From Desulfobacteraceae bacterium (GTDB taxonomy: Bacteria > Desulfobacterota > DSM-4660 > Desulfatiglandales > HGW-15), in assembly GCA_050123415.1 (NCBI GenBank), contig JASFHE010000001.1, positions 10,607-74,606 on the forward strand: a stretch of DNA of 64,000 bases. Reading direction: 5' to 3'. This document shows, piece after piece, positions 14,326 through 44,118 of the stretch. Numbering within the stretch: the first letter of the stretch is position 1; every line of letters begins with the position of its first letter. The position numbers and the translations under genes are program-made. The notes below the pieces were generated by a model. It was not told where the DNA came from. It searched no databases and was given only the letters and a program-made list of their open reading frames with translations.

Positions 14326-15639
14326 ATGCCTTTAAATGGAGCAATTCAGACAGGAACAGTCACCAGTTTCTCCGGTGCAAACGGACTTTTGCAGGCTTTG
14401 TTGGATTTTGTGGCTGGAACAAAAGTAACAGGAGCAACAACGACTGGTTCTGGCTCAGGACCATACACGGCAACCTTGACCACTACTGTTGGTTTAGGAT
14501 CTGTTATCATCAATTATACAGTTGGCGGGATAGATTTCGAGGCACAAGATGATGGTGCGAACGGCTTAAATGATGCAACAGATGGATATATCTCTTCAGG
14601 ATCGATTGATTATGGAACCGGAGCGTTTACAGTAACTTTTACCACAACACCAGATGCAAATCCAACAATTGATTATGTACACGGAGATGATGGTCAGGAC
14701 TGGGAAATTAAATATCAACGTAATACGAGAGATAGCGATAAGTTAACACCAGAGGAGCCATTCGGAAGTGATTGTGAGGAGGTTATTCTACACAACCGTG
14801 GACTATCTGGTGCTGAGAATGTTCTGATTGGTATCCGTGAATGGAAGTATGTTGCTGGCGCTGCATATGGTTGGGATCTTACTGGCTATCAGGCATACAC
14901 GGATGGGATGTATTGGGGAAAGACAATCATTGATGATTTGTCTCTTGATTATGATTCATTATGGGATCATTTTGATGATACTCCAATCCTCCCGCTCATT
15001 GATGATACAATGTACTACTGGTTTTATAGTAACCGTCAGCGCATAGTTGTTATAGTAAAAGTACAGAGCAATTATGAATGTTGTTACATGGGTTTCGCAA
15101 ACCGCTTCGGGAATCCAGAAGATTATCCATATCCGCTTGTTATTAAGGGTTGTGGATATGGTAATATCAACAACACAAGTACTTCACAAAGTAACCATTC
15201 ATATATACCGTATGGACCATCTAATGGAACAGAAATGCTCCATAATGTTCTTCCTAACAATGCTTGGAGTATAAACTGGGGAACAGGATCGACCTACTTT
15301 GCAACATGGCTGTTCCCAACGGCGAATTGGGCAGATACAGGACAGATGTACGAGGCTCCGGCTAAGAAGGAAGTAATGATGACTCCTGTTATTGGTATGA
15401 ATGCGCTAATAAATGCTGGACTTTGGGAACTGGATGGAGTATATCATGTTTCCGGTATCGGTGTCCAATCCGAAGACTACATTCGGGCGCATGATGGAAT
15501 AAAGTACCGGGCTTTTCAGGATATTGCCAGAATAGAATACGACGATTGGATGGGTGTGGCAGAAATAGAATTTACTACCACAAGCACTTCTACAACCACA
15601 ACAACTACTACATCAAGTACCACAACAACTACAGTATAG
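14326..15639 (+). CDS. tail tip protein with C-terminal Thr/Ser tail
   Basis: First gene after the tape measure. 437 aa, ending in TTTSTSTTTTTTTSSTTTTTV. Its central and C-terminal parts look distantly related to the next ORF. Confidence 0.55.
   Translation: MPLNGAIQTGTVTSFSGANGLLQALLDFVAGTKVTGATTTGSGSGPYTATLTTTVGLGSVIINYTVGGIDFEAQDDGANGLNDATDGYISSGSIDYGTGAFTVTFTTTPDANPTIDYVHGDDGQDWEIKYQRNTRDSDKLTPEEPFGSDCEEVILHNRGLSGAENVLIGIREWKYVAGAAYGWDLTGYQAYTDGMYWGKTIIDDLSLDYDSLWDHFDDTPILPLIDDTMYYWFYSNRQRIVVIVKVQSNYECCYMGFANRFGNPEDYPYPLVIKGCGYGNINNTSTSQSNHSYIPYGPSNGTEMLHNVLPNNAWSINWGTGSTYFATWLFPTANWADTGQMYEAPAKKEVMMTPVIGMNALINAGLWELDGVYHVSGIGVQSEDYIRAHDGIKYRAFQDIARIEYDDWMGVAEIEFTTTSTSTTTTTTTSSTTTTTV
15574..15633 (+). 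repeat. Thr/Ser-coding tract (20 codons)
   Basis: act acc aca agc act tct aca acc aca aca act act aca tca agt acc aca aca act aca. Confidence 0.95.
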
Positions 15640-18333: not shown

Positions 18334-19143
18334 ATGGCAGAGTATGAAGAAAATTTAGAAGCTGTACAACAATCTCCAGTACCTGAGTTTTTTCTATTCA
18401 ATGCGTCAGGAACCGTTGAAAGATATACATCATACTCCTCTTCTCTTACGTTCCTTGGACAGTATTGGGCGGCTGCATCTATAACCCGTGGTGGTATTAA
18501 GCAAGATTTAAACTTTGGTGTGACAACACTTAACATTACTACTCCGATCACGCCAAATATTGCAAAGTACATCCCGAATCAGCCGGTTGAACCGGTAGAT
18601 GTGACAATCTACCGTAGCCATATTGATTACCTTGACCAGTATGATATTTTTTTCAGAGGTAAGGTTAAATATGTTCAGTTGAAAGGGAAACTGGCATCGG
18701 CTCAATGTGAGGCAAAGAATAAGTATATGGCAACGAAGATTCCAAATATTATCTACCAGTCAAATTGTAACCATGATATATATGATGATGGATGCGGAGT
18801 TGACGAATTTGCATACCGTCGAACTGCGAACGTATCAAATATTGTTGGTAGTAAATTGTATTTCTCCTTCACAGATGGTGGTAGCCCTGTCTCCACCGGA
18901 TACTTCACAGGTGGAAAAGTTAAATATGGCAATGATCTCCGGTTCATAACCTATGCAACTAATACATATCTTGATCTCCATATTCCGTTTGATAGTAAAG
19001 TTGCAATTGGTACAGAAGTTTATATATATCCTGGTTGTGATGGCAATCCTGCCACATGCGTTGGAAGATATAACAATTTGAATAACTTCTTGGGAATGCC
19101 ATATATTCCTGAGACAAACCCGGTAATCTGGGGGTTTAAATAA
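18334..19143 (+). CDS. minor tail protein, GTA g13 / BR0599-like
   Basis: The C-terminal YPGCDGNPATCVGRYNNLNNFLGMPYIPETNP resembles the C...C...N-x-x-NF-x-G-x-P-x-IP motif of the phage BR0599 family. Confidence 0.5.
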   Translation: MAEYEENLEAVQQSPVPEFFLFNASGTVERYTSYSSSLTFLGQYWAAASITRGGIKQDLNFGVTTLNITTPITPNIAKYIPNQPVEPVDVTIYRSHIDYLDQYDIFFRGKVKYVQLKGKLASAQCEAKNKYMATKIPNIIYQSNCNHDIYDDGCGVDEFAYRRTANVSNIVGSKLYFSFTDGGSPVSTGYFTGGKVKYGNDLRFITYATNTYLDLHIPFDSKVAIGTEVYIYPGCDGNPATCVGRYNNLNNFLGMPYIPETNPVIWGFK

Positions 19144-19659: not shown

Positions 19660-22227
19660 ATGGTAACTGGACTAATTATAGCAATTGTCGTTCTTGTTGC
19701 TGGTTTGTATATGGCATCTATGAATAGGCCTGATACGGAGCAACAAGATATGTCTCCAAACACCCTGGAGTCATTTAAAGCAACAACAAATCAGGAAGGT
19801 GCTGTTGTTCCTCTTGTCTTTGGACAGGCAAGAATATCCGCTAATCTTTTGTGGTATGGAAATCTTGAGACCGAAGAAGTAACAGAAGAGGTTGAAACAG
19901 GTGGTAAGGGTGGTGGCGGCGGAAATAAAGAAGATGTTACTGTTGGATATAGATATTACATGGACATATGGGAAGCGCTCTGCATTGGTCCTGGTGTATC
20001 AGTACTTGGGACTTTTGTTAATGACAAGTTTGCCGGTGGAGCACTTGGAACCCTTAATCCAGGTGATACAACTTATTATCCGACGGAACCTGGTAGTTAT
20101 GCGGCGCCTTTAAACCCGGTCGCACATGTTTTCATGAAACGCCAATATCTTGGTGAAAATGTAGCATCAGTGCCAACCTATCATTGGATAGTAAAAAGGC
20201 TTAGTGATGCGCCTTTAACACATGCTAACCTATCAAACGGAGTTAATCCAGCCGCAGCTATCTATGATATGTTACGGATGTCTGGTGCCGAACCTTCTGC
20301 ATTTGTTCTATCTACCTTTCAAGATGCGGCTACTTATTGGTATACCAAAGGATATGGAATTAACATTACTCTCTCCAGGCAGGAGGAGACAAGAAATGGA
20401 ATTAAAAGGATCTTTACTTATGTTGATGGCAATCTTCGGGTGGATAATCAAGACCGCTTTGAACTAATTGCATGGAAAGATACAGATACATATCAGTATA
20501 CAATTGATCAAAACGATATCAAGGAATTTAACTTCAGGCGACGGAGTTGGTATGATGTATATACAGACTTCAGGGCAAACTTTATAGATAGTACACGTTC
20601 ATATACTCAGCGAACAATCAGAGTGCGCAACACAGCCGTTCGGGATATAACTGGACAAGATCGCCAACTAACGGTAGATTTGACAGCATTCATTGACGTA
20701 AATACAGCAAGTAAACGCCTTTGGGAGATTATGAAGCAAATGTCTTATCCAGAAGCGGAAGTGTCAATGAAGGTAAGTTGGAAATATATTGGTGTTCGGG
20801 TTGGTGATGTTGTTCGTGTAAGCTATAATGATTATGGGATATCAGATCTTGATTTCCGCATTATTGGTATAGATATATCCAAAGCTGATTCCAATGAAAT
20901 AACATGGACTTGTAAGCAACTTTTAAGCACTCTCTTTGATGCAAATTTTGAATTAGGAGGAGATCCACAATGGGTTGCTCCAAGTTATTCTCCACAGGTT
21001 CCATATGCGGCGCAAGTATTTGAATTACCCTACAATGAATTCACCGGACGTTCTCCTGCTTATTTACTACTCTGTGCCAGAAAAGGAGCGGAGACTGGCT
21101 TCAAGTGTATGTTATCTATAACCGGAACGGATTATGTAAGTAAAGGAACCTTCGGAACATTCACCCAACATGGTACACTGGATGAGACTTATCCAGCAAC
21201 AACGTATACAATTGATGATGAAATAGGCGTTCTATATACTCCAGATAGGGAAGATCCGCTATTTGATGATCTTGATAGAGCAGACCTTTTTTCAACAATG
21301 CGCTTTGTGATTATAGATGATGAAATTATGGCTTTCCAGAATGTTGATTATGAGGGTGGTGCTGGAGCTATAAGACTGACTGGAATTATTCGTGGAATCC
21401 TGAATACTACTATTGCCCAGCATAACTCCGGCGCTCATATCTGGATCACTGCTCTTCGGAATAATATCTTGAAAAACGTTACATCAACAAATTTTTATAT
21501 TAAGATGTTGCCATATTTTGGAACAGAAGTGGTTGACGCCTCTTCGGTTAGTCCAATATCTGTAACCTATGAAGAGAAGGCTGTGACACCTTGGACTCCA
21601 TGGAATGGTGTTGCAACTCGCTCTGGCTCAGATATCTCCGTTGTCTTGAATAATACTACACAAGAGATCCTTGGAGCTGGAATGAGGGCCGCTGAGAATC
21701 AAACGCTTGAGGAGGTTCATCAGATAGAAGGCTTCATTCAATATGGTATTAACTCCCAGGCAGCACAATACGAATCGGTAACAGCGGAGTTTTCTTATGT
21801 CCAGGCTGGTTCACATTATCTTTATATGCGGCAATACCTTGAAGGAAGATATACCAACTGGGTAAGTATCTATGTTGGTGCGGCAGATGGTGATTACTAT
21901 GTAGCTGCGAATCAGCTTACAAATACAGGTTTGGAGAAGGTTCAATGGGGGTCCCAGGGATTTATCGAAGTAATAAACAGAAATCTTTCAAGACTTAATG
22001 ATGAATTACTTCTCGTATCGGGACTCCTTGATGTAGACCTTTCTGGCCTTGCAGATACAAATGCGTTGACGTGGAATGAATCAGCGCAAAAGTTTGAACC
22101 ACTTGATTTTGAGGTTGCATTTTCAACTACCACGACAACAACCACCACCACAACCACTACAACCACAACCAGCTCAAGTTCCACAACCACAACAACCACA
22201 TCAAGTACCACAACAACTACAGTATAG
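19660..22227 (+). CDS. host specificity / central tail fibre protein (gpJ / GTA g15-like) with C-terminal Thr/Ser tail
   Basis: 855 aa. The N-terminal EGAVVPLVFGQARISANLLWYGNL resembles the gpJ/GTA g15 N-terminus. The C-terminus carries a 65-aa fibre-like module followed by a 33-residue T/S tract, then V. Confidence 0.6.
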   Translation: MVTGLIIAIVVLVAGLYMASMNRPDTEQQDMSPNTLESFKATTNQEGAVVPLVFGQARISANLLWYGNLETEEVTEEVETGGKGGGGGNKEDVTVGYRYYMDIWEALCIGPGVSVLGTFVNDKFAGGALGTLNPGDTTYYPTEPGSYAAPLNPVAHVFMKRQYLGENVASVPTYHWIVKRLSDAPLTHANLSNGVNPAAAIYDMLRMSGAEPSAFVLSTFQDAATYWYTKGYGINITLSRQEETRNGIKRIFTYVDGNLRVDNQDRFELIAWKDTDTYQYTIDQNDIKEFNFRRRSWYDVYTDFRANFIDSTRSYTQRTIRVRNTAVRDITGQDRQLTVDLTAFIDVNTASKRLWEIMKQMSYPEAEVSMKVSWKYIGVRVGDVVRVSYNDYGISDLDFRIIGIDISKADSNEITWTCKQLLSTLFDANFELGGDPQWVAPSYSPQVPYAAQVFELPYNEFTGRSPAYLLLCARKGAETGFKCMLSITGTDYVSKGTFGTFTQHGTLDETYPATTYTIDDEIGVLYTPDREDPLFDDLDRADLFSTMRFVIIDDEIMAFQNVDYEGGAGAIRLTGIIRGILNTTIAQHNSGAHIWITALRNNILKNVTSTNFYIKMLPYFGTEVVDASSVSPISVTYEEKAVTPWTPWNGVATRSGSDISVVLNNTTQEILGAGMRAAENQTLEEVHQIEGFIQYGINSQAAQYESVTAEFSYVQAGSHYLYMRQYLEGRYTNWVSIYVGAADGDYYVAANQLTNTGLEKVQWGSQGFIEVINRNLSRLNDELLLVSGLLDVDLSGLADTNALTWNESAQKFEPLDFEVAFSTTTTTTTTTTTTTTTSSSSTTTTTTSSTTTTTV
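22123..22221 (+). repeat. Thr/Ser-coding tract (33 codons)
   Basis: Codons encode only S and T and use a mixture of ACN/TCN/AGY codons. Confidence 0.95.
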
Positions 22228-22268: not shown

Positions 22269-22478
22269 ATGACAGTACTATCTCCAAGCGGACTTGAAAC
22301 ATTTGACTACGGGACACCCGGATGGAACCACATTTACAATCGTAATATGGATCTTCTTGAGAATCAGCTATTGAAACTGGCTGCTTTGCAGGATGTAGAT
22401 GTAACAGGCTTAACCGATGAAGATGTTTTAATCTGGAGTACTTCTGCAAATAAATGGATTAGGACGGAGAGGTATTAA
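22269..22478 (+). CDS. stand-alone fibre-like module protein 1 (69 aa)
   Basis: PSGLETFDYGTPGWNHIYNRNMDLLENQLLKLAALQDVDVTGLTDEDVLIWSTSANKW aligns with the C-terminal module of the 855-aa protein and with the next ORF. Confidence 0.6.
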   Translation: MTVLSPSGLETFDYGTPGWNHIYNRNMDLLENQLLKLAALQDVDVTGLTDEDVLIWSTSANKWIRTERY

Positions 22479-22479
22479 T

Positions 22480-22692
22480 ATGTCTATAAACTTGAACCCA
22501 TCAGGACTTGACCAGAGTGAGGTTGGTGATAGTAATTGGGTAAATACGCAGAATTCGAATATTACTTATCTCAACAGCACCTTGCTTAAATTAAATTCAC
22601 TCGGAGATGTTAATGTTTCGTCTCAACAGGATTTTGATGGATTGCAATGGGGTGAAGGTGCTGGTGAATGGGTGAATGTACCAACTATATAA
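22480..22692 (+). CDS. stand-alone fibre-like module protein 2 (70 aa)
   Basis: PSGLDQSEVGDSNWVNTQNSNITYLNSTLLKLNSLGDVNVSS...LQWGEGAGEW. Same module as 22269..22478. Confidence 0.6.
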   Translation: MSINLNPSGLDQSEVGDSNWVNTQNSNITYLNSTLLKLNSLGDVNVSSQQDFDGLQWGEGAGEWVNVPTI

Positions 22693-22706
22693 GGATAAAT
22701 GAACCT

Positions 22707-22976
22707 ATGTCTGGATCAATTGACAAGGGTGTAGCGGATGTCGCCACTGGGATAGCTAAATTGATTGGAGATCCTGTGTTGATTGTACTTACAATCGTTA
22801 TTATTTCTCTTATCATCTTGCTATTCCTTATGACGAAATCTATGGAAAGGAAGGATAAAGCTCATAAACAATCAATAAAAGAACTTACACATGAATTGCA
22901 TGAGAATAGTCAAACTCTCATGCGGCTTGCTACTTTAATCGAGGTACTTGTCCATGGAAGAAAACAAACTAGTTAA
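22707..22976 (+). CDS. single-pass membrane protein, holin candidate
   Basis: ATG 22707. One hydrophobic helix (VLIVLTIVIISLIILLFLM) followed by a charged C-terminus. Located after the tail genes. Confidence 0.35.
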   Translation: MSGSIDKGVADVATGIAKLIGDPVLIVLTIVIISLIILLFLMTKSMERKDKAHKQSIKELTHELHENSQTLMRLATLIEVLVHGRKQTS

Positions 22977-22992
22977 TCAGGAAGGCAGCACT

Positions 22993-23217
22993 ATGAATAT
23001 TTTTAAAATGTTAGCAAATACAATACTCTATAAAGGATCTAAAGTTGCTGATTCAATGGTGATAGAGGCCAAGAGTAGAGCCAAAGAAGCCAGAGATGTT
23101 ACACAACAGAAGATTGAAAATGTTTACGCACAACTGAATAGTTGTGTTGAGCGCGGAGATAGATGGTTTCTTGTACCGAATACTCCAATTGATGAATGTG
23201 GTAGAGAAGATAAATAA
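22993..23217 (+). CDS. hypothetical protein
   Basis: AGGAAGG lies upstream of ATG 22993. Alternative in-frame starts exist at 22948 and 22954. Confidence 0.4.
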   Translation: MNIFKMLANTILYKGSKVADSMVIEAKSRAKEARDVTQQKIENVYAQLNSCVERGDRWFLVPNTPIDECGREDK

Positions 23218-23313
23218 TTTTACCCCCGCATAAATAATATTTCAAAAGAATAGGAGGTGAAAAAAAAGTAAAATTGGTGGCAGAAAACAATTACTTTGAA
23301 AAGGAGAAAAATA

Positions 23314-23706
23314 ATGCTTCAACAATTTACCATGTTTGTGGTTAACGCCTTGCTGTCCGTTTTGACACCTGAAAAGGTACGTGGATTCCTTCAATCCGGT
23401 ATTGCCAAAATCAAGGAGTATGTCAGATCGACGCCAACCGATATTGATAATTCCCTTGTTATTCCGGCTTGCAATCTGGTGCTTGCTGCCCTTGAAATTC
23501 CCGGCCCAGACGGACAGATTGACATTAATGGAGAACTCAGAAAATTGTTTGACGCTCTGGGTGATCTGAAAACAATTTTTCTTGATGCTGGCCTGGATTA
23601 TATTGAAGATAGGGTGATTGCCTCGGAGAACAAAGTTGACAATGCACTTATCCTGCCGGCGTGCAGTTTGGTACGTACCGTTCTCCGCGTACCCGATAAT
23701 GATTAA
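23314..23706 (+). CDS. hypothetical protein with internal duplication
   Basis: AAGGAG lies 7 nt upstream of ATG 23314. The segment TPTDIDNSLVIPACNLVLAALEIPGPD is repeated as SENKVDNALILPACSLVRTVLRVPDND. Confidence 0.5.
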   Translation: MLQQFTMFVVNALLSVLTPEKVRGFLQSGIAKIKEYVRSTPTDIDNSLVIPACNLVLAALEIPGPDGQIDINGELRKLFDALGDLKTIFLDAGLDYIEDRVIASENKVDNALILPACSLVRTVLRVPDND

Positions 23707-23732
23707 CTAAAATGGCAAAAGGAGGGACTCTA

Positions 23733-24122
23733 ATGTTTCAAAGAAAACAATTCATAATGCTCCTGGTAATGTTTATTACCATGGTATTTCTCTTTGGCTG
23801 TCCAATGATGCCAACTGGAGCGAAATCGGTTTCCCAGATGACACCGAAAGAAAAAGTCACCTGGATGTATGGAGTCTACAATTCGCAGTATGCGGATTAT
23901 CAATCGATGACTGGACATATCTGGGACGATACATCAGAGACATGGAAGAAGACTTCTTCTCCAACTTTGTCGGAAGATCAAAAGGAAATTCTGCGGAAAC
24001 GCAAAGAAATCCTTACCAGGGTATATCCAATTATTAAATTATATGATTCTATGTTGAACAGCGGTGCTGTGCCGGACAGGGAGACCGAGCAAAAGATCAT
24101 TGATCTTTTGAACGGATTGTAA
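23733..24122 (+). CDS. lipoprotein (possible spanin or exclusion component)
   Basis: AAAGGAGGG lies 6 nt upstream of ATG 23733. MFQRKQFIMLLVMFITMVFLFGC has a positive n-region, a hydrophobic core and an L-F-G-C lipobox. Confidence 0.55.
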   Translation: MFQRKQFIMLLVMFITMVFLFGCPMMPTGAKSVSQMTPKEKVTWMYGVYNSQYADYQSMTGHIWDDTSETWKKTSSPTLSEDQKEILRKRKEILTRVYPIIKLYDSMLNSGAVPDRETEQKIIDLLNGL

Positions 24123-24525: not shown

Positions 24526-26016
24526 ATGAAAAAGAAAGATAAAAGAACCATTGGCATTTTCACGAATTTTCAAGAGTTTAATCCTGGTTATAGCCTAACC
24601 GGCATTGTTGTTGATCAATCATTAATGCTCCTGGAAAACGGACATGATGTTCATGTGTTCGTCAATGAAACCTTCAATTCGAAATACAATCAGGACGCAA
24701 GAATCTCCTACCTAATGAATAAATTCAGAGGGAAATTTCATTTACATAAAGCGACCAAGTTTATGCATTTGATTGATTATGAAACAAAATCCACCCTTAC
24801 GGAAGACCACAAAAAAGCCCTAATCGATGCTGCAAAGATCTTTACAGATAGCATTTTAAAATTTGACATTGATCGGATTTATACCCACGATTTTATTTTT
24901 ACTGGATGGAATCTTCCGTATGCTCTTGCAATAAAAGAAGCAAGCAGACTTCTATCCATAGCTGGCAAACAAGTTTATTGGCTCCATTGGATCCATAGTG
25001 TGCCAGGATCCCATCGGAGAGATTGGTGGGATATTAATCAGTATGGGGATAATCATCTGATTGTATTTCCAAATAATATTGAAATTAATCGGATATGTGA
25101 AACATTTATGACAAATCCGTCAAGGGTCCGTATGATTCCACACATTAAAGATATCCGTACATGGTACGATTTTTCTGATGAATCGTGGGAATTCACAAAA
25201 CGGTATCCTCAGATAATGGAAGCAAATGTGGTCCAAGTTTATCCTATCTCAACCGACCGCATGTCAGCAAAGCAATTACAATTGGTGATCAAAATATTTG
25301 GTTATATGAAACAAGCCAAAGTTCCTGTTTTCCTGTGTGCTGCAAATCAATGGGCTACCGGTCGCCGGCGCAAGGAAGATGTTAATAAATACATCCTTCT
25401 TGCGGAACATTGTGGTCTTGAATATGGTAAGGAATTTGTCTTTACTTCTGAATATTCATATGATCCAGTACTTAATGATATTATCGAAAGCTCGGAGAAT
25501 TTCGAGGAATTAGATCAAAGATTACCGAAATGCGAATCTTCCGGAGATGAAAAAGATGATACATATGGGCAATTCCTAAAAGGTATTAAATGGGATGGTG
25601 ATTTTGCGGAAGAAAAAGTCCGACTTCTGCAACTCTCCCAACCATATGCTACAGGTATCAGCCGCCGGATGCTTCGCGAACTTCAACTCCTATCTAATTT
25701 ATTTATTTTTCCAACCCGTGAGGAGAGTTTTGGATTGGTTGGGCCAGAGGCAGCATTTTCAGGTGCCTTATGTATTATTAATCGAAGCTTAATTATGCAG
25801 TTTGAGGTTATGGGTTCAAATGCTCCGGCGTTTGACTTTGGTTCACACTATAATAATACTCCAAGTATTAATGATGAAAAATATATCCGTGGAGTCTCCT
25901 TTGCGATTCTAAATCGGATTTATTCTAATGAGGCGATCACGACCAAAATCCATTGTCGCCGGCGATACAACATGAACTCGATTTATAACCGGTATTATGT
26001 TCCCAATGCAATATAA
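24526..26016 (+). CDS. GT-B fold glycosyltransferase (GT4/GT1-like)
   Basis: GGAG lies upstream of the ATG. N-terminal IGIFTNF...GYSLTGIV...NGHDVHVF and C-terminal FIFPTREESFGLVGPEAAFSGAL (the E-x-FG...EA...G signature). Confidence 0.55.
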   Translation: MKKKDKRTIGIFTNFQEFNPGYSLTGIVVDQSLMLLENGHDVHVFVNETFNSKYNQDARISYLMNKFRGKFHLHKATKFMHLIDYETKSTLTEDHKKALIDAAKIFTDSILKFDIDRIYTHDFIFTGWNLPYALAIKEASRLLSIAGKQVYWLHWIHSVPGSHRRDWWDINQYGDNHLIVFPNNIEINRICETFMTNPSRVRMIPHIKDIRTWYDFSDESWEFTKRYPQIMEANVVQVYPISTDRMSAKQLQLVIKIFGYMKQAKVPVFLCAANQWATGRRRKEDVNKYILLAEHCGLEYGKEFVFTSEYSYDPVLNDIIESSENFEELDQRLPKCESSGDEKDDTYGQFLKGIKWDGDFAEEKVRLLQLSQPYATGISRRMLRELQLLSNLFIFPTREESFGLVGPEAAFSGALCIINRSLIMQFEVMGSNAPAFDFGSHYNNTPSINDEKYIRGVSFAILNRIYSNEAITTKIHCRRRYNMNSIYNRYYVPNAI

Positions 26017-26025
26017 GTGGGCGCC

Positions 26026-26700
26026 ATGCATATTGCTATTATACCAACAATGGAGATGGATCGTTGTCTCGATCTTGTTTACTCTATAAATAAAGGGAAA
26101 ATTAAACCAAGCAGAATTATTATTATCAATAATTCTGGTTCTGTTTACACTAAGGATTTATCTTTATATAATACTATTGTATGTAATTATTCTAAAAATA
26201 TTGGTGTAAATGCAGCATGGAACATTGGTTTAAAACTTGCCAAAGAGCAGTCCTCGCATTTATCTATATTAAATGATGATATTCTAATCAAAGAAGACTT
26301 TTTCAAAAGGATCAATCTCCTTCTTTCCATTAGATTATTACTCGATGTTCCTGTCTTTTGCCCATCTACAACTCATGATAAAACTTTATTTGATCGGTCG
26401 GAAGTAAATAATCATACAAGCCGGACTCATTATATGAGGAAGAAAGAAGGTTGGGCTTTTACAATCCGAGACCGGTTTGTTAAAATGATCAAACCGATTC
26501 CAGAGGAATTATTTGTTTTCTGTGGAGATGATTGGATTTGGAATGAAACGGTTAAGTATGGTACGATGTGGGTAAAAGATGAAAGAAATATTATCTACCA
26601 TACGGTTGGAGCAACTTTAAAAAATAACCCCAAACTCCGTGCTTTATTGAAGCATGAGAAAAGGATATTTCATGGGAAGGGTAAGTCTTGGAAGGCATAG
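26026..26700 (+). CDS. GT-A fold glycosyltransferase (GT2-like)
   Basis: HIAIIPTMEMDRCLDLVYSI...IIIINNSGS...NIGVNAAWNIGLKLA...LSILNDDILI is the typical GT2 N-terminal Rossmann region with a DD motif. The alternative GTG 26017 start directly follows the upstream stop. Confidence 0.6.
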   Translation: MHIAIIPTMEMDRCLDLVYSINKGKIKPSRIIIINNSGSVYTKDLSLYNTIVCNYSKNIGVNAAWNIGLKLAKEQSSHLSILNDDILIKEDFFKRINLLLSIRLLLDVPVFCPSTTHDKTLFDRSEVNNHTSRTHYMRKKEGWAFTIRDRFVKMIKPIPEELFVFCGDDWIWNETVKYGTMWVKDERNIIYHTVGATLKNNPKLRALLKHEKRIFHGKGKSWKA

Positions 26701-27184
26701 TTATGGAGATATTAAAGTAATTGGACAACGTTGCCATGTCTATGTTGGTAACTTTTGCTCTATTGCTGACCATGTTAAGGTGATTGTCCTCGGGCATGAT
26801 CCAAACAATGTTTCCACATATCCTTTTAATAAGAAAAACTGGCAAAGGGCCGCCGATTCAAAAACGCATCCGGTTGTTTACGGAGATGTCCATATCGGGA
26901 ATGATGTTTGGATCGGTTACAATGTAACGATAATGGGTGGAGTAAAGATTTGTGATGGAGCAGTGATTGCTGCCGAATCAGTTGTAACGAAAAATATTGA
27001 ACCTTATACAATTAATTATGGTGTTCCAACCAGAGTAAAACGTTTAAGATTTACTCCATCAATTGTTTATAAATTATTAAATATAAAATGGTGGGAGTGG
27101 CCGGATGAAAAGATCGCCGAAAACGCTCATTTGCTTTGCAGTAAAAACATTGATGAATTCATAAGACTTCACGGGAGGAAGTAA
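26672..27184 (+). CDS. hexapeptide-repeat (LbH) acetyltransferase, Vat/CatB/sugar O-acetyltransferase-like
   Basis: GRHSYGD...VGNFCSIADHVKVI...YPF...GDVHIGNDVWIGYNVTIMGGVKICDGAVIAAESVVTKNIEPYTINYGVPTRVKRLRF. An alternative ATG lies at 26654. Confidence 0.75.
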   Translation: MGRVSLGRHSYGDIKVIGQRCHVYVGNFCSIADHVKVIVLGHDPNNVSTYPFNKKNWQRAADSKTHPVVYGDVHIGNDVWIGYNVTIMGGVKICDGAVIAAESVVTKNIEPYTINYGVPTRVKRLRFTPSIVYKLLNIKWWEWPDEKIAENAHLLCSKNIDEFIRLHGRK

Positions 27185-27185
27185 A

Positions 27186-27758
27186 ATGGCAATCAAGACA
27201 CCGAGGGAATATCGGCAGATGGAATTCAGGCAATTACTTTTCGAATTGGTATGCCTGCTCAAACCACATACTTATGTGGAGATTGGAGTAAAAGACGGGT
27301 GGACATTCAATAAGATTGCTCCACTTGTTGAACGCGCCGTTGGTGTGGATATTGTAGCGTCTCCAGTAGAAAGACTTCCACATGTTGAATTTATCCATGA
27401 TAATTCTGCCAGGTTTGCAAAAACATGGAAGGATCCAATCGATTTCCTTTTTATTGATGCATACCACGAATGTGAAGGAGTCTTACTTGATTTCTACCGT
27501 TTGCATCCTTTCGTTCGGCCAGAAACCGGAATGATTTTTCTCCATGATACATATCCTGTGAAACCGGAATTACTTCTTCCAGGTTATTGTCACAATGCAT
27601 GGAGAGCGGCAAAGACGATCCGGGAGAAGTTTGTTGAAGAATTTGAAATTGTTACACTCCCCGGTCCGTGGGCAGGCCTCTCAATACTTCGGAAATTGAA
27701 AGATGGCAGGCACGGGTGGATGGACAAAGATGCCTTCGCTGGAGGGAGAGGAAGATGA
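27186..27758 (+). CDS. class I SAM-dependent methyltransferase (Methyltransf_24-like)
   Basis: YVEIGVKDGWT (motif I), GVDI, and FLFIDAYHECEGVLLDF...GMIFLHD. Confidence 0.65.
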   Translation: MAIKTPREYRQMEFRQLLFELVCLLKPHTYVEIGVKDGWTFNKIAPLVERAVGVDIVASPVERLPHVEFIHDNSARFAKTWKDPIDFLFIDAYHECEGVLLDFYRLHPFVRPETGMIFLHDTYPVKPELLLPGYCHNAWRAAKTIREKFVEEFEIVTLPGPWAGLSILRKLKDGRHGWMDKDAFAGGRGR

Positions 27759-28897
27759 CTAAATTACTTTTTCTTTTTATGAGCCAAGGGGCAGCATCTC
27801 CTGGAACGACTAAACGGGTGTATCCAACAAATGATTGTGGAACAAAATATATGGATGCATTTGCAGGAGAAGGCTATTTCAAGATGCTGGATGTACTCCT
27901 CAAAAATAAAGTGATTGATGACTTGAAGATTTTCTTTGAGTCGAATGTCCAGCCCGGCATAGCGTCCTGGGTGAAGGGCCCTTCAACATATTGCGAAGTA
28001 ATTCCGGAGATTCGTTTTGTTGAGGAGTATATTGAGGAGGACACAATCATCTTTGTCCGCGGCGGGTTTAAACACTGGCATGATTTACTTTTGAAATACA
28101 AAAATAAAAATTGGCTTTTACTTTATGGTGCAAATACCGGAAGAGAAAGATGGACATGGTGGGATATTATTTTTGATGATATCTTGTGTAAAAATGAAAT
28201 TGATCGGCATGGAAGATATTGGTTTCCTTTTATCAAACCAATAAATGAGGAGATGTTTTTTCCGGAAGATACGATACGGCAGCAACCAATTCCTCAATGG
28301 GACTTTTGCATCGGAGCATCTCATATTCATGACAGGAAAGGACAATGGAGAATTTTTAACGCTATACTGGAATATAATAAAAAATATGGAGAACTTCATA
28401 CGATTATGCCTGGCGGACCGCGACGTGGATTGAAAACGCTTGAGATGATTAAAAATCTTCCGAATGCAAAGTATGTAGAAACGCCCGGTCATGTTCATCG
28501 AACCGAACTTCAGAGAATTTTTAATGATTCAAAATATTTTATCCACTTTGGTGCTCATGGACAAAATGACCGCGGTCCGATTGAGGCACTTGCATGTGGG
28601 ACACCTGTAGTAATTGGTTCTCCGAGTTATCATGCACCATTCTTATCTGATATATGTTACACGGGTTGCAATATTAATGATCCGGTTTCGATAGCAGAGA
28701 GTTTGAAGATATTACTTGAACGCTGGACAATTGAGGAGAAAAGTAAAACATATTGGAAATATAAGAAGAAAAGTGGATTCAATGAAATAATTATTCCAAG
28801 GATGATAATGCTATTTTCTCTCATAAAACACATGAAACCAACAATAAAGGCAAAACAACTTATAATGGAGGAGGTAATGAATCATGCGATCAGTTAG
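27755..28897 (+). CDS. probable GT-B-like glycosyltransferase
   Basis: ATG 27755 overlaps the upstream TGA (ATGA). The C-terminal YFIHFGAHGQNDRGPIEALACGTPVVIG resembles the GT-B C-terminal domain. Weaker than the other GT calls. Confidence 0.4.
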   Translation: MTKLLFLFMSQGAASPGTTKRVYPTNDCGTKYMDAFAGEGYFKMLDVLLKNKVIDDLKIFFESNVQPGIASWVKGPSTYCEVIPEIRFVEEYIEEDTIIFVRGGFKHWHDLLLKYKNKNWLLLYGANTGRERWTWWDIIFDDILCKNEIDRHGRYWFPFIKPINEEMFFPEDTIRQQPIPQWDFCIGASHIHDRKGQWRIFNAILEYNKKYGELHTIMPGGPRRGLKTLEMIKNLPNAKYVETPGHVHRTELQRIFNDSKYFIHFGAHGQNDRGPIEALACGTPVVIGSPSYHAPFLSDICYTGCNINDPVSIAESLKILLERWTIEEKSKTYWKYKKKSGFNEIIIPRMIMLFSLIKHMKPTIKAKQLIMEEVMNHAIS

Positions 28898-29510
28898 TAA
28901 AATGTATGGTGATAGTTTCTTCCATCGTAGGAAGAAGTTGATTTGGCGCGCTCCAATACTTTGTGAAATTATTAAAGAAATATTTCCTGGTGCAAAAAGT
29001 ATCATTGATGTTGGTTGCGCCATTGGAGAGTTTGTACATCAATTCCAAAAAATGGGGATATCTTCAGAAGGTATTGAGGGTAGTGAAAGTGCATTAAAGT
29101 ACGCATCTCCAGAGACCGGTATATCATTATGGGATATTAGAACACCATTACCTACCTCAAAAACCTGTATTGGTAAAACATGGAATTTGTGCATGTGTCT
29201 TGAAGTTGCAGAACATATCGAAGAGGAATATACAAATATATTTATTGATAATCTTTGCTTCTTATCAAATACTATTTTGATATCTGCTGCACCCCCAGGA
29301 CAACAAGGATACGGTCATTTTAATTGTCAAAAAATGGAATATTGGGAAATCAAATTCGGAATTAGAGACTACAGGAGAAGAGTTGAAAAAGAAAAGCGTT
29401 TTAAAAGTCTCCTTGAACCTTACAAGAGGAAGAAGGGTTTGAGTGGATATTATAACAATATCATGATTTATGAACATAATGATATTATATTGCATAAATA
29501 TTGGGGGTAA
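28884..29510 (+). CDS. class I SAM-dependent methyltransferase (Methyltransf_11/23-like)
   Basis: IIDVGCAIGEFV (motif I), GIEGSESA, and WNLCMCLEVAEHIEEEY. Confidence 0.7.
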   Translation: MRSVSKMYGDSFFHRRKKLIWRAPILCEIIKEIFPGAKSIIDVGCAIGEFVHQFQKMGISSEGIEGSESALKYASPETGISLWDIRTPLPTSKTCIGKTWNLCMCLEVAEHIEEEYTNIFIDNLCFLSNTILISAAPPGQQGYGHFNCQKMEYWEIKFGIRDYRRRVEKEKRFKSLLEPYKRKKGLSGYYNNIMIYEHNDIILHKYWG

Positions 29511-29511
29511 A

Positions 29512-30282
29512 ATGAATAAGGAAATATTTGATATTACTTGTACAGCAACACTTCGACCAGGACTCCTCGATAGAACACTTTCTTCATTTACAAAGAATTT
29601 ATTCAAGGAAAGGATATCTTGTGCAAGGCTTATTATTAATATTGATATGGCTGGTGCAGAAAAAAGCAGAGAAAAACAGAAATTGATTGATGTAATCAAT
29701 GTAATAGATAAATATCCTTTTTGCAGAAGAGAAATTAGGATTGGAAGAGAGCCGCATTTCCCAACAGCTTTTACTTGGTGTATGGATGAAGTCTACAGCA
29801 AGTATTTTTTTCATCTTGAGGAAGATTGGGAATTGCTTTTTCCTATCGATTTTGAAGCAATGTGGGGTTTACTTGACAAGTATGGAGACCTTGCCCACCT
29901 TCGATTATCGCAATTTACTTCCGAAGAGTTTCGGTGTAAAAATTGGAACAAGTTTCTTGTCTGGAACGGAGAATTCTTTGAAGTGCCGCTCGATGAAAAA
30001 TTGGTGATCGGATGGGCTGGCCATCCGTCGCTCAATCGATCATCTTTTATAAAAGACTGTCTACCATACATTGATCGAATGGCAAATCCCGAAAAGCAGA
30101 TCAAAGGCAAGATACATCCATGTATAACTCAATCAATTAATGCACACAGGTTTGGTTCATTTCATCCACAAAACTCGCCGAATTCAATTGTGGATATCGG
30201 GCGAGAGTGGATGGTCAATAATGGGTGGAGTAAAGCAGGCAATAAAGCCTGGTTCACCAATTGGGAAAGGAGTAATCAGTAA
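29512..30282 (+). CDS. hypothetical protein, possible GT-A-like enzyme
   Basis: ATG lies 1 nt after the upstream TAA. ITCTATLRPGLLDRTLSSF...ARLIINIDM...FFHLEEDWELLFP is loosely GT-A-like, with an acidic EED in place of DxD. Uncertain. Confidence 0.3.
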   Translation: MNKEIFDITCTATLRPGLLDRTLSSFTKNLFKERISCARLIINIDMAGAEKSREKQKLIDVINVIDKYPFCRREIRIGREPHFPTAFTWCMDEVYSKYFFHLEEDWELLFPIDFEAMWGLLDKYGDLAHLRLSQFTSEEFRCKNWNKFLVWNGEFFEVPLDEKLVIGWAGHPSLNRSSFIKDCLPYIDRMANPEKQIKGKIHPCITQSINAHRFGSFHPQNSPNSIVDIGREWMVNNGWSKAGNKAWFTNWERSNQ

Positions 30283-31322
30283 TGGATTTATCTATCATCA
30301 TTCCGTTTGTTGGAGAATACCCGCAAGTATTATGGACAATTCAATCGATTGCACAAGGCTTGATTGAAACGGAGATTGAGTTTGAAATTATTGCAGTGGA
30401 TAACTACTGCGAACAGGCTGTCCGTCAATGTAATGTGGCAACTCAGAAAGCAATTGACAAATTGAAACAGATTTACTTCAACGAAGGAAGAGAAATTGAG
30501 GCTTCCGATATGTTTGAAATCCATGACATGATCCCGCCAATTTATAAAAATAGAAGCGGAGAGGCAATCAAGGCTTGTGCGCGTGGGAATCCGTGGCTCC
30601 GTTATGTTGAATATCCTGACAGTTTATCACATTGGCAGGCAAAGCGTGTTGGTGTTCAAGAATCAGATGGAAAAGTTCTCCTGTTTGTTGATGCACATAC
30701 CATTCCGTCGGTTGATGCAATTGAAGAAATGTTTTTAGAATATACACGTGGATCATACAATGAAAATGGAACAATGCATTTACCTTTAACATACAAGATC
30801 CTTGAATGGCACCGATTGATCTACAAGTTTTTTGTTGAGAATGAATTTTTCTACAGTTATAAGTTTACTCCTTTCAGACAAGCCAAAGAGCCGTACGAGG
30901 TACAATGCATGTCAACTTGTGGCATGATGATCTCCAGAAGTATTTATGATCAACTCGGCGGCTGGCCAGCAACTCTTGGAGTTTATGGTGGCGGAGAAAA
31001 TTTCATGAATTATACGCTGGCAGTATGCGGTTTTAAGAAGTGGATATATCCGCATGGGACGCTTTTTCATCATGCGGATAGACGTGATTACCATTGGTAT
31101 GGTGATAATTTGATTTATAACAGGATGCTTGCTCATTATCTTTTCGGGGGTAAAGACTTGTTGGCGAAGTTTACTTCTATTTGTAAAGGTAGACCATCTA
31201 CTCTGCAAATGTTTGCAGAGATGGCCCTTAAGGAAGGTTTCGATCAACGGCAGCAAATCAAATCAATTCAAAAAATGACTATTGAGGAATGGGCGGAGAA
31301 ATGGAGAGAAAATGAACTTTAA
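30282..31322 (+). CDS. GT-A glycosyltransferase resembling polypeptide GalNAc-transferases (GT27/GT2, DxH type)
   Basis: - LSIIIPFVGEYPQVLWTIQSI and EIIAVDNYC form the GT-A N-terminal region.
- KVLLFVDAHTIP carries the D-x-H metal motif, as in LTFLDSHCE.
- GVYGGGENFMNYTLAVCGFKKWIYPHGTLFHHADR parallels the Gal/GalNAc-T motif [32 protein letters not shown]. Confidence 0.6.
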   Translation: MDLSIIIPFVGEYPQVLWTIQSIAQGLIETEIEFEIIAVDNYCEQAVRQCNVATQKAIDKLKQIYFNEGREIEASDMFEIHDMIPPIYKNRSGEAIKACARGNPWLRYVEYPDSLSHWQAKRVGVQESDGKVLLFVDAHTIPSVDAIEEMFLEYTRGSYNENGTMHLPLTYKILEWHRLIYKFFVENEFFYSYKFTPFRQAKEPYEVQCMSTCGMMISRSIYDQLGGWPATLGVYGGGENFMNYTLAVCGFKKWIYPHGTLFHHADRRDYHWYGDNLIYNRMLAHYLFGGKDLLAKFTSICKGRPSTLQMFAEMALKEGFDQRQQIKSIQKMTIEEWAEKWRENEL

Positions 31323-31731
31323 AGATTACCTTTGTAAATTCGAAAGACAAGTAATTTATACAGGGTTTATGATGGGTCGTTTCGGAGAACGCAAGGAAGA
31401 GATTGTGCCTCTCCGATATGGAAAATTATCAAAGTCGGAATTTGGAGAATTCATTGAAAAGACATTTGATGCTGGTGTTTTACTTGCGATCAATTATTAT
31501 GGACTTTTCAAACTATCGACTGAAATAATTAAAGCGGCTGAATCTGTGAGACATATTTTTGGAGAAATTCGATCCATAAAATCTCCAGTTGTTCATTTTA
31601 ATTCCATAAAAATTGAGGATGTTAAGGAACTTGCACCAGAGTTGTTTCCGGATTATCTAGAATTCAAGAAGTATATTGTGGAATTGAGATGGGGCCAGCG
31701 TGATGCCAGCCCAGATTTAAAGATTATTTAA
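31312..31731 (+). CDS. hypothetical protein (last gene of plus-strand arm)
   Basis: ATG 31312 overlaps the end of the upstream gene. No motif recognised. Confidence 0.45.
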   Translation: MNFKDYLCKFERQVIYTGFMMGRFGERKEEIVPLRYGKLSKSEFGEFIEKTFDAGVLLAINYYGLFKLSTEIIKAAESVRHIFGEIRSIKSPVVHFNSIKIEDVKELAPELFPDYLEFKKYIVELRWGQRDASPDLKII

Positions 31732-32107
31732 GAGAGTTCAGGAAGTTAATGAATTTCTGAAACATTGCAAACCATTTTTCACGAATAAGCCCGCCAAATC
31801 CATTTGTCCAGAATTCATTGTTAGCTTGTTGAATTCTTTCCTTATCTGTTTCATATTGCTTCACATAAGGCGGCCAGTTTGGTGTATTTCCATAGATGGA
31901 GATGAGTTCATTTATTTCTGCTTTTGTTTTACAATCAATCAACGGCCGTTTGAAATTTCTGATAAAATTTTCTTGTGCAAGTCTGATTTGAAGACCAAAA
32001 CCATCATTGTAAAAATGGGCTTGGTAATGTTCATCAGTCGGTGATACAGGTTGGAGAATTTGAGCTGCTTCTGCCAATGTTTCCTTATTGAAATATTTTG
32101 GTTTCAT
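31724..32107 (-). CDS. hypothetical protein (last gene of minus-strand arm)
   Basis: Its 3' end overlaps the plus-strand gene by 8 nt (convergent). Confidence 0.5.
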   Translation of the reverse strand: MKPKYFNKETLAEAAQILQPVSPTDEHYQAHFYNDGFGLQIRLAQENFIRNFKRPLIDCKTKAEINELISIYGNTPNWPPYVKQYETDKERIQQANNEFWTNGFGGLIREKWFAMFQKFINFLNSLK

Positions 32108-43076: not shown

Positions 43077-43246
43077 TGAATTGTTTTTCCTTCTTTCACA
43101 ATAAGGTTGCAAAGTATCGCCTCATTTTCATCGATATTCCGGTCAAGATGACATTGACACCTCCAGTCTGGTTTTTCTTCTCCGACCGGGTTATTGCGGA
43201 ATAATGGTTCATCAAAACAACTGACATAGCAAACAGAGCAATGCAT
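43073..43246 (-). CDS. Cys-rich miniprotein (57 aa, below the track cutoff)
   Basis: ATG 43246 overlaps the dCMP deaminase stop (TGATG). Hand translation gives MHCSVCYVSCFDEPLFRNNPVGEEKPDWRCQCHLDRNIDENEAILCNLIVKEGKTIQ. Confidence 0.4.
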   Translation of the reverse strand: MHCSVCYVSCFDEPLFRNNPVGEEKPDWRCQCHLDRNIDENEAILCNLIVKEGKTIQ

Positions 43247-43791
43247 CACAACCTCCTATCGGAAGTAAAGGACATTATGATTCTTTTGATTTGGTTTATT
43301 TCGGAATGTGTGAAATGGATTTCTTCCGTTTCAAGTTTATATTCCTCTGCCTTCTTGAGCCAATATCTATCGCGTTCCTCGTCATCACTCTGGTAAATAA
43401 GTTCATAATATATTTTAGTGATTCCGACTCGTTTGATATTCTTTAGACAGTGAATGCATGGGAATAAAGTGCAGTAAAGAACAGAACCACGGAGACCGAT
43501 TCCGCCGAATTCTGCTATTTGGTTGATGGCGTTTTGTTCTGCATGAATCGATGGGCAGTCCTGGTACTTTTTAATTCCGGAATCATCTCTTCCAAGTTCT
43601 CTCCGCAAACAGAATTTGGGCCCTTTATCCGTGCATTGCGGCTCGCCAGGCATACTGCCATTATAGCCGGTTGCAACGACTCGCCTACCGGAAACAATTA
43701 CTGCTCCGGTAGGACGAGAGTTGCAACCGGACCTCACGGCGGCCAGTTTTGCCAACGCCATGAAGTACTTATTCCAAGGAAGCCGGTTCAT
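43246..43791 (-). CDS. dCMP deaminase
   Basis: WNKYFMALAKLAAVRSGC, HAEQNAI (H-A-E zinc/catalytic motif), and LFPCIHCLKNI (P-C-x-x-C). ATG 43791 overlaps the upstream TAA. Confidence 0.85.
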   Translation of the reverse strand: MNRLPWNKYFMALAKLAAVRSGCNSRPTGAVIVSGRRVVATGYNGSMPGEPQCTDKGPKFCLRRELGRDDSGIKKYQDCPSIHAEQNAINQIAEFGGIGLRGSVLYCTLFPCIHCLKNIKRVGITKIYYELIYQSDDEERDRYWLKKAEEYKLETEEIHFTHSEINQIKRIIMSFTSDRRL

Positions 43792-44016: not shown

Positions 44017-44118
44017 GTTAAAGTATATCATATAAAGAACCCCTAATGATATACCAATCCATATTCCGGATGAAAAGCCTTGCCACCAAATTTTCCAAAA
44101 ATCTTTTTTGTTATTCAT
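44017..44118 (-). CDS. tiny membrane peptide (33 aa)
   Basis: The ATG overlaps the TS-like gene stop (ATGA). Sequence MNNKKDFWKIWWQGFSSGIWIGISLGVLYMIYFN. Confidence 0.25.

Follow-up and report, generated by a model that had tools for sequence, protein, structure and literature searches.

What does a tailed phage decorate with an array of soluble glycosyltransferases encoded at the end of its virion genes? The question is raised by a 64,000-nucleotide stretch of DNA deposited as Desulfobacteraceae bacterium (GCA_050123415.1, contig JASFHE010000001.1, positions 10,607 to 74,606; hereafter the window, to which coordinates refer unless a relative is named). Its source is an uncultured tailed phage with a genome of ~83 kb, ~19 kb of which lies outside the window. 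Positions 24526-31731 carry nine tightly packed, co-directional + strand open reading frames (ORFs), here P1 to P9, that close the virion arm and encode five soluble glycosyltransferases (GT-B fold, P1 and P5; GT-A fold, P2, P7, and P8), two S-adenosylmethionine (SAM)-dependent methyltransferases, one acetyltransferase, and one conserved protein, P9. Upstream of them, four virion-arm proteins end in Thr/Ser tails of 14-36 residues. Comparative genomics leads us to regard the nine genes as probably forming a late, cytoplasmic pathway by which the phage O-glycosylates its virion proteins at these C-terminal poly-Thr/Ser tags.

Tailed virion proteins and the enzymes of the block

Ser/Thr-rich C-termini are confined to four of the 346 six-frame ORFs of at least 60 amino acids (aa) in the window, each of them a + strand gene of the virion arm, and none of the 346 contains an internal Ser/Thr tract. 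The tails mix all four Thr codons, which argues that they are selected at the protein level and are not slippage repeats. An initial annotation of this DNA, made from its letters, had recognized the tails, but its set was incomplete, lacking a 76-aa ORF at 7935-8165 (+). This ORF, which is preceded by a strong ribosome-binding site and directly follows the major capsid gene, encodes a proposed capsid-associated acceptor in which a head of ~39 aa leads into a 36-residue Ser/Thr run (8055-8159) and one last Glu. The small post-capsid ORF is Ser/Thr-tailed in 57 of 75 capsid-anchored relatives, and its product is a possible capsid decoration protein or "glycan carrier." The second proposed acceptor is the major tail (tube) protein (192 aa; 10014-10592, +; phrog_807, 2e-29), which ends in 14 Thr and a Glu (10545-10589). 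Because it matches only the N-terminal part of phrog_807, a major tail protein with an Ig-like domain, its tail sits where relatives carry a surface-exposed Ig-like decoration domain. Tube homologues are Ser/Thr-tailed in 41 of 55 relatives.

Two further tail proteins are proposed acceptors, and homologues of both are tailed in relatives. One is a 437-aa structural protein encoded after the tape measure gene (14326-15639, +; phrog_687, 3.2e-22), with a 21-residue Thr/Ser tail (15574-15636). The other is an 855-aa protein resembling gpJ and gp15 of gene transfer agents (GTAs) (19660-22227, +; Pfam Phage-tail_3, 1.6e-13; Rcc01698_C, 4e-5), with a 34-residue Thr/Ser tail (22123-22224). The 855-aa protein also has a strongly hydrophobic start that is unusual for its family (MVTGLIIAIVVLVAGLYMA; 19660-19720, +; Kyte-Doolittle hydropathy over 19 residues (KD19), 2.53). 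Two ~70-aa ORFs at 22269-22478 and 22480-22692 (+) are paralogues of the ~60 residues that precede its Thr tail; both are untailed in the window, and homologues in relatives (e.g., L018, L021, L091, and L104) have poly-Thr ends.

The candidate initiating enzyme is P8 (346 aa; 30282-31322, +), a GT-A glycosyltransferase resembling the polypeptide N-acetylgalactosaminyltransferases (ppGalNAc-Ts) of family GT27. P8 scores above the cut-off of the Pfam GT2 model (3.3e-9), and the best Protein Data Bank (PDB) matches of its family profile are polypeptide GalNAc-transferases 9, 10, 7, 4, 12, 2, and 1 (from 5.4e-6), aligned over the full catalytic domain, in line with the ppGalNAc-T-like label that it had been given initially; the single-sequence PDB search was uninformative (E 0.06). 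D137-x-H139, invariant in 23 sequences, aligns with the DSH of the DxH metal motif in GalNAc-T9. G237-G238-E239...N243 (consensus YGGGENF), likewise invariant, aligns with the WGGEN of the Gal/GalNAc-T motif in the same enzyme; relative to WGGENxE, Trp is replaced by Tyr and the trailing Glu is not kept. The match is confined to the catalytic domain, with neither a ricin-type lectin domain nor an N-terminal membrane anchor in P8. The last gene of the block, P9 (139 aa; 31312-31731, +), had been left unassigned, and it indeed has no match in Pfam, PHROGs, NCBIfam, or the PDB. Its conservation in at least 19 loci and its adjacency to P8, on either side, in 19 of 24 loci make it a likely partner of P8.

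P1 (496 aa; 24526-26016, +), a GT4-like GT-B glycosyltransferase, is the most widely conserved member of the cassette, with 744 homologues, several of which carry PF00534/PF13439. At E < 1e-3, Glycos_transf_1 is found in 17 and Glyco_transf_4 in 8 of 35 family sequences, and the window protein itself falls below the Pfam cut-off (14.9 and 16.9 bits, respectively). The EX7E motif of GT4 enzymes is present as E400-x7-E408, invariant in 35 sequences and located within PTREESFGLVGPE. The AlphaFold2 model (predicted local distance difference test (pLDDT) score, 91.9) shows the two Rossmann domains of a GT-B fold, and its best Foldseek matches are BshA, MshA, PimB', WaaG, and GlgM (E 1e-10 to 1e-8). 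The template modeling (TM) scores of these matches are low (~0.3-0.4), probably as a result of domain orientation and of a lineage-specific insertion of ~60 aa at roughly residues 320-380. Remote viral fold matches include GT-B enzymes of DNA-modifying phages (SP-15) and giant-virus GT1-family proteins. The P1 family profile retrieved no PDB sequence at E < 0.1, a single-sequence PDB search was uninformative, and the Pfam scan detected no DUF1975-type domain.

As single sequences, P1, P2, P5, and P6 remain below threshold, and their assignments rest on family profiles, conserved motifs, and a structure model. P5 (380 aa; 27755-28897, +) is a GT-B glycosyltransferase with a group 1 C-terminal domain (Glyco_trans_1_4, 2.2e-5) and has homologues with PF00534; its family profile best matches the mannosyltransferase WbaZ-1 (1.8e-6) and also CapJ and BshA. 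Profile-profile comparison of P5 with P1 gave no significant similarity, and a single-protein scan of IMG/VR with P5 gave no match. P2 (224 aa; 26026-26700, +; alternative GTG start at 26017) is a GT2-like GT-A enzyme with an invariant DXD-type motif, N83-D84-D85, and an N-terminal IIP...IIIDN pattern; its family profile matches the GT2 domain of chondroitin synthase (4.7e-5) and GalT1 (5hea; 9e-4), and it matches the rhamnosyltransferase model TIGR01556 (8e-6). P7 (256 aa; 29512-30282, +) belongs to a family without a Pfam model, none of its 155 homologues having a Pfam domain. It carries an invariant E103-(E104)-D105 at the position of the DXD motif, and its AlphaFold2 model (pLDDT 94.6) best matches GnT-I (1fo8; 4.8e-9), followed by SpsA and TarP; its profile found no sequence relatives in the PDB, where only fold comparison worked.

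Three genes encode tailoring enzymes. P3 (170 aa; 26672-27184, +; alternative start at 26654) is a soluble left-handed beta-helix hexapeptide acetyltransferase of the xenobiotic acetyltransferase (XAT) class (Pfam Hexapep, 6.6e-11; phrog_16087, 1.5e-46). Since NCBIfam models of Vat/CatB-type resistance enzymes are matched at 3.5e-43 with only 147 bits against a cut-off of 300, P3 is not an equivalog of these enzymes; WbbJ/WcaF-type acetyltransferases are matched at lower scores. A resistance gene was considered and judged unlikely on the basis of these equivalog cut-offs and the glycosyltransferase context. P4 (190 aa; 27186-27758, +) is a class I SAM-dependent methyltransferase (Methyltransf_24, 6.7e-10, above cut-off), and P6 (208 aa; 28884-29510, +) is a Methyltransf_23-like one (Pfam, 8e-4; phrog_27380, 4.3e-5), with PF13489 in its L002 homologue.

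The initial annotation had named most of these classes (GT-B for P1 and P5, GT2 for P2, a hexapeptide acetyltransferase for P3, SAM methyltransferases for P4 and P6), and the profile, motif, and fold evidence agrees with each. Its "possible GT-A-like" protein, P7, is now confidently assigned by fold, and Foldseek, which it had put forward as a check and which was run on P1 and P7, returned GT4-type GT-B and GT-A matches. It had also allowed that most of the ORFs might turn out not to be glycosyltransferases; in fact five of the nine qualify, and another three encode tailoring enzymes. The enzymes it listed thus stand, while its count of five glycosyltransferases in the window and a possible sixth becomes six supported ones.

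The sixth, in the head-gene region (2376-3608, +), is a canonical GT4 glycosyltransferase (NCBIfam glgA_Coryne, 1.7e-41; MshA, 2.4e-34). The family assignment made initially was correct, but membership in the system was not borne out: none of the 30 relatives whose sequence extends 5 kb or more upstream of the capsid gene has a homologue, so the gene was rejected as a conserved part and is treated as an add-on. The 2-6 kb around it have a GC content of 0.37-0.40 compared with 0.43-0.50, a difference that points to a recent insertion in this lineage. The ten proteins, P1-P9 and this GT4, all lack a membrane-like segment (maximum KD19, 1.56). Three tandem paralogous ORFs of ~165-174 aa (863-1357, 1358-1855, and 1855-2379, +) have no family match and share D-x-HH and SYL(T/S)HK(I/V)F motifs; a homologue in L096 sits after tail fiber genes.

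Distribution among phages and genomic setting

A megablast search with the block against 50,697 deposited phage records gave no match, and tblastn against these 50,697 genomes found P1 in none and P7 as one weak partial match in an uncultured 484 kb phage. Scanning IMG/VR with P1 as the anchor retrieved 77 loci, and co-occurrence was counted in 45 distinct P1 loci that continue for 9 kb or more downstream. P8 is present in 39 of these, followed by P7 (32), P6 (31), P5 (29), P2 (21), P4 and P9 (17 each), and P3 (11). Conversely, a P8-anchored scan placed P1 within 10 kb in 32 of 34 loci of at least 18 kb. P5, P6, and P7 co-vary as one unit and P1 and P8 as another, while P2, P3, P4, and P9 are variably present, P3 always inside a glycosyltransferase block. 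P1 and P8 form a linked core, often accompanied by P9. The minimal P1+P8+P9 pattern occurs in 8 of the 45 loci and the full set of the window in only 2. One cassette (L005/L006) encodes a radical SAM/SPASM enzyme (6049-6978) between P1 and P2.

The P1+P8 core accompanies Thr/Ser-tailed structural proteins in phages of unrelated types, with GC contents of 0.31-0.65 (IMG/VR and metagenome contigs). Around the cassette, 90 distinct Ser/Thr-tailed ORFs were collected, of which 89 lie on the cassette strand; their tails have a Thr fraction of 0.70, a median of 15 residues, and frequently an A, V, or AP ending. Tails are still present in 19 of 46 cassette loci without a BLAST-detectable homologue of the structural genes of this phage. 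Three jumbo-phage IMG/VR contigs (L303, L305, and L306; 113-224 kb) encode P1 and P8 homologues with four or five unknown genes between them, followed by proteins of 1200-1375 aa, one of which per locus is Ser/Thr-tailed. Phages with a reduced cassette have short tags, such as the ...TTTTTV on four proteins of L114. Among the relatives L218, L220, L226, and L232, poly-Ser tags are seen instead of poly-Thr in some.

The association was also examined from the structural side, with the tail gene of the BR0599/phiJL001-gp84 family (18334-19143) and the capsid gene as anchors; the tail-protein pattern was derived from a 6-sequence alignment, a 15-sequence alignment being too divergent. Relatives with at least ~38% tail-protein identity or 60-97% capsid identity have tailed tube, 437-aa, gpJ-like, and small proteins, and relatives below ~37% identity have neither tails nor cassette genes in syntenic position. 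In cassette loci, 62 of 2858 ORFs are tailed, against 2 of 1395 in distant cassette-less relatives retrieved with the tail gene (15-fold; Fisher p = 7e-9), and one of these 2 adjoins a P5 homologue.

Within the window, the + strand arm extends from position 1 to ~31.7 kb and holds head, tail, and lysis-like genes followed by the nine-gene block. The nine ORFs that had been delineated initially, with their ATGA and TAATG overlaps, were reproduced in full: an independent gene caller predicts the same nine products on the Logan contig (run SRR11697952) that contains this sequence. The P1-P9 junctions are +9, -29, +1, -4 (ATGA), -14, +1, -1 (TAATG), and -11 nucleotides, and GGAG-type (Shine-Dalgarno-like) ribosome-binding sites precede most starts. 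Homologues of every one of the nine, at 28-68% identity, occur in numerous other phage contigs, which shows them to be real genes; the protein database lists P1 itself on a contig as long as 83,343 bp. Because P9 shares 8 nucleotides with the first convergent minus-strand gene (31724-32107) and GC skew changes sign near 32 kb, where a minus-strand replication and recombination arm takes over, the block terminates the rightward arm, as had been described. It had also been called an island, a term that does not apply in the compositional sense: its GC content (0.36-0.39) is the same as that of its flanks, a compositional island was accordingly rejected, and the block is a module of the late operon. 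A scan for promoters and terminators over 22-33 kb gave nothing useful above shuffled controls, and we infer transcription units solely from gene packing. In agreement with the initial annotation, no nucleotide-sugar synthesis gene was found among the scanned window ORFs, which do not comprise every small ORF or the ~19 kb of genome beyond the window. No tRNA genes were found.

Between the tail genes and the cassette, a lysis-like cluster (22668-24122, +) encodes a strongly hydrophobic, holin-like protein of 102 aa and a spanin- or exclusion-like lipoprotein of 136 aa that carries an LFGC lipobox. These two genes suggest a Gram-negative host. The capsid protein is 35-38% identical to actinobacteriophage capsids and the tail module is GTA/lambda-like; the host is probably not an actinobacterium. 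Genome matches were limited to nine phage-looking contigs of metagenome-assembled genomes, four or five of them in Desulfobacterota bins, a binning that we take as a hint of the host and not as an assignment. On the minus strand, 48349-51831 encodes a DNA polymerase III alpha subunit (PHP, NTPase, and finger domains) to which a C-terminal domain of the uracil-DNA glycosylase (UDG) superfamily is fused (1e-16). An HNH/NUMOD4 homing-endonuclease-like gene (55212-55700, -) lies among the replication genes and adjoins a clamp-loader-like AAA+ gene (55704-56630); the clamp-loader-like gene of the relative L007 contains an intein.

Proposed pathway and alternative targets

The linkage of P1 and P8 with tails, the 15-fold enrichment of tailed ORFs, and the likeness of P8 to ppGalNAc-Ts all support the virion O-glycosylation that the initial annotation had suggested. 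In the pathway that we propose, P8, possibly together with P9, would transfer the first sugar from a host UDP-sugar to Thr/Ser hydroxyls, much as GT27 enzymes act on mucin repeats. P8 is our first choice for initiation because it resembles the mucin-type initiating enzymes and because the tags are biased toward Thr, though on this assignment our judgment is evenly divided. By analogy with GtfA, which acts on serine-rich repeat proteins, P1 might initiate instead, which we consider somewhat less likely. P1 and the accessory enzymes P5, P7, and P2 would otherwise lengthen and branch the glycan, P4 and P6 would O-methylate it, P3 would acetylate it, and the GT4 at 2376 may contribute a strain-specific sugar, with host nucleotide sugars as the supply.

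Because P5/P6/P7 and P1/P8 co-vary as units, we view the cassette as one pathway with optional extensions, in which P1+P8(+P9) would be the core and P5-P6-P7, P2, P3, and P4 the elaboration modules. The predicted product is a dense brush of glycans that would cover the tail tube and tail tip and, via the 76-aa protein, the surface of the capsid. Such a mucin-like layer could plausibly shield the particle from proteases, nonspecific adsorption, or recognition, or could provide weak adhesion. The system might furthermore be a portable "tag-and-glycosylate" device in which a poly-Thr tag marks any virion protein for the P8/P9/P1 core and which has spread horizontally from ~75 kb siphovirus-like phages to jumbo phages in hosts with GC contents of 0.31-0.65, a proposal to which we give an even chance.

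Several points weigh against virion O-glycosylation. A tail is within reach in only 23 of 47 cassette loci with at least 9 kb upstream, and long tailed contigs (e.g., L205 and L223) do not appear in the P1 or P8 scans; this could reflect either a miss of the pattern scan or a genuine absence of the cassette. Loci were scored within ±10 kb by BLAST on stop-to-stop ORFs, which makes many absences uninformative, and the lineages are not independent, their shared ancestry weakening the statistics. The major capsid protein itself is untailed, unlike the situation in mycobacteriophage Che8, and a BLASTP comparison, at the level of sequence, of Che8 gp108, gp109, and gp110 with all window proteins gave a best E of 0.77. 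For the donor sugars, the order in which the enzymes act, and the role of P9, we can offer only guesses.

Of the alternative targets, an envelope glycan of the host, which like phage DNA had been named initially, survives best, although we consider it unlikely. The cassette would then alter an O-antigen, capsule, or other surface glycan of the cell while it is infected, perhaps to prevent superinfection or to keep progeny off lysed cells, and the Thr/Ser tails would be unrelated flexible or hydrophilic extensions. Polysaccharide loci typically hold blocks of several glycosyltransferases with acetyl- and methyltransferases, as seen here, yet no priming polyprenyl-phosphate glycosyltransferase, flippase, polymerase, GtrA/B/C, or membrane O-acetyltransferase is found among P1-P9 and the GT4 at 2376. 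Individual matches do point to surface polysaccharides: the best P5 profile match is to an O-antigen mannosyltransferase fragment (WbaZ-1), with CapJ also matched; P2 matches chondroitin and heparosan synthases; and P3 resembles, at its lower scores, WbbJ/WcaF-type enzymes. Soluble glycosyltransferases could also reach lipid-linked intermediates at the inner membrane face, in what the upstream lipoprotein and holin-like genes suggest is a Gram-negative host; the absence of membrane segments from all ten proteins nevertheless argues against serotype conversion of the Gtr/Oac type. The block lies in the late virion operon and not in a lysogeny or moron context, and an envelope target explains neither the strand-specific, cross-lineage tie to Ser/Thr-tailed structural proteins nor the ppGalNAc-T-like signature of P8.

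It is very improbable that the glycosyltransferases instead hypermodify phage DNA through a hydroxymethylated base and thereby shield it from host nucleases. The observation that most favors this route, and that also counts against a virion target, is a divergent thymidylate-synthase (ThyA)-like gene (44115-44870, -) beside a dCMP deaminase gene (43246-43839, -). Only the C-terminal third of the ThyA-like protein matches Pfam, and the His that follows the catalytic Cys is replaced by Leu; because the Cys itself is kept, as is the dUMP-specifying Asn in the RSxDxxxGxPxN motif, where a dCMP hydroxymethylase of the T-even type would have Asp, it is not a dCMP hydroxymethylase. The pair could constitute an ordinary dTMP pathway, the ThyA-like protein being simply a thymidylate synthase, or provide a dUMP hydroxymethylase. 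The window further encodes a DNA methylase and the polymerase III alpha-UDG fusion, and SP-15-type GT-B enzymes are among the remote fold matches of P1, but no hydroxymethyluracil (hmU) kinase, aGPT-Pplase, or T4-type alpha- or beta-glucosyltransferase family was matched in the scanned ORFs. Phage glycosyltransferases that build DNA-linked oligosaccharides are described by Pyle et al. (2024), according to a passage of PMC12619734 that cites them; five or six glycosyltransferases and three tailoring enzymes nonetheless exceed the known DNA glycan systems. The cassette lies with the late structural genes, whereas the genes for replication and nucleotides occupy the opposite strand, and its association with Ser/Thr tails would go unexplained.

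Least probable of all is a cassette that is no single pathway and acts on host proteins (takeover) or a small molecule, or in which P3 is an XAT-type antibiotic acetyltransferase, for although the strongest named matches of P3 are Vat/CatB-type xenobiotic acetyltransferases and the content is modular (P2, P3, P4, and P9 variable), P3 reaches 147 of the 300 bits required and always lies within a glycosyltransferase block, P5/P6/P7 and P1/P8 co-vary as units, and the junctions are translationally coupled.

To our knowledge, experimental demonstrations of virion glycosylation are limited to a few mycobacteriophages, and our literature search returned nothing relevant on poly-threonine or Thr-rich phage tags or on phage O-glycosylation beyond mycobacteriophages. 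The present results suggest that virion glycosylation is common in a large group of uncultured environmental phages, which would use unrelated enzymes and a far more explicit acceptor signal. If the tag-and-glycosylate proposal is true, bacteriophages would be seen for the first time to wear a mucin-like glycoprotein coat, and the ppGalNAc-transferases would have a relative in the bacterial world with defined peptide substrates. A working tag (~14-35 C-terminal Thr/Ser) together with P1, P8, and P9 would amount to a compact cytoplasmic O-glycosylation tool. Virion O-glycosylation would also assign a function to two families without Pfam models (P7 and P9), aid the annotation of Ser/Thr-tailed "hypothetical" structural proteins in viromes, and make the purpose of a phage glycan coat outside an animal host testable.

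Comparison with known glycosylation systems

The familiar phage systems that glycosylate DNA or host surfaces differ from this cassette in their genetic requirements. Glucosylation of T-even DNA needs a hydroxymethyl-pyrimidine pathway and early or replication genes, whereas the cassette here is late and the ThyA-like protein keeps its Asn. The enzymes of Gtr/Oac serotype conversion are membrane-embedded, in contrast to the proteins here, which have no membrane segment and include P3 as a soluble hexapeptide enzyme. Giant viruses such as chloroviruses and mimiviruses decorate virion surface proteins independently of the host with their own cytoplasmic glycosyltransferases and methyltransferases, and GT1-family giant-virus proteins are among the remote fold matches of P1. 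These viruses, however, have eukaryotic hosts and other linkages and acceptor motifs, and many encode nucleotide-sugar synthesis, for which no gene was found here in the scanned ORFs.

In the serine-rich repeat adhesins of Gram-positive bacteria, soluble GT-B and GT-A enzymes (GtfA/GtfB, then Gtf3 and GalT1) act in turn on long Ser/Thr tracts before export (PMC6973325). P1 is GT4-like, as is GtfA, and the P2 profile matches GalT1 (5hea). The systems differ in that P1-P9 contain no DUF1975/GtfB-type domain, no SecA2/SecY2-like genes occur among the scanned ORFs, and the acceptors are short C-terminal virion tags instead of tracts of hundreds of residues in a secreted adhesin.

Animal mucin-type O-glycosylation (CAZy GT27) offers the closest parallel to P8, which spans the whole ppGalNAc-T catalytic domain and keeps DxH and GGEN. 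GT27 enzymes prefer Thr over Ser, and the presumed acceptors here are likewise dense Thr-rich tracts (Thr fraction, 0.70). The match is remote (profile, ~5e-6; single sequence, 0.06), and P8, at 346 aa, is cytoplasmic, with no ricin-type lectin domain, signal anchor, or secretory pathway; P9 has no animal counterpart.

The closest functional precedent is virion glycosylation in the mycobacteriophages Che8, Corndog, and Myrna. The relevant passages of PMC11600133, PMC12363180, and PMC12619734, citing Freeman et al. (2023), describe mycobacteriophages that glycosylate the C-termini of capsid and tail-tube proteins with their own glycosyltransferases and an O-methyltransferase. Shared with them are phage-encoded soluble glycosyltransferases and an O-methyltransferase (Corndog type), represented here by five glycosyltransferases and two SAM methyltransferases in one block, and, at a distance, a capsid protein family (35-38% identity to actinobacteriophages). 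The sites of modification predicted here from sequence are likewise C-termini of structural proteins, the tail tube subunit among them, but the tube carries the T14 tag and the capsid protein none. The capsid and tube proteins of Che8 have short, ordinary C-termini (...NKTGS and ...YSDGS) and no homopolymeric tag, whereas the tagged products here are those of the small ORF behind the capsid gene and of three tail genes. The present cassette is also larger (five or six glycosyltransferases and three tailoring enzymes) and is centered on a GT27-like enzyme. Self-glycosylating phage particles are thus already known; new here are enzymes that are non-homologous by sequence, a GT27-like core, and an explicit poly-Thr tag shared by diverse virion proteins.

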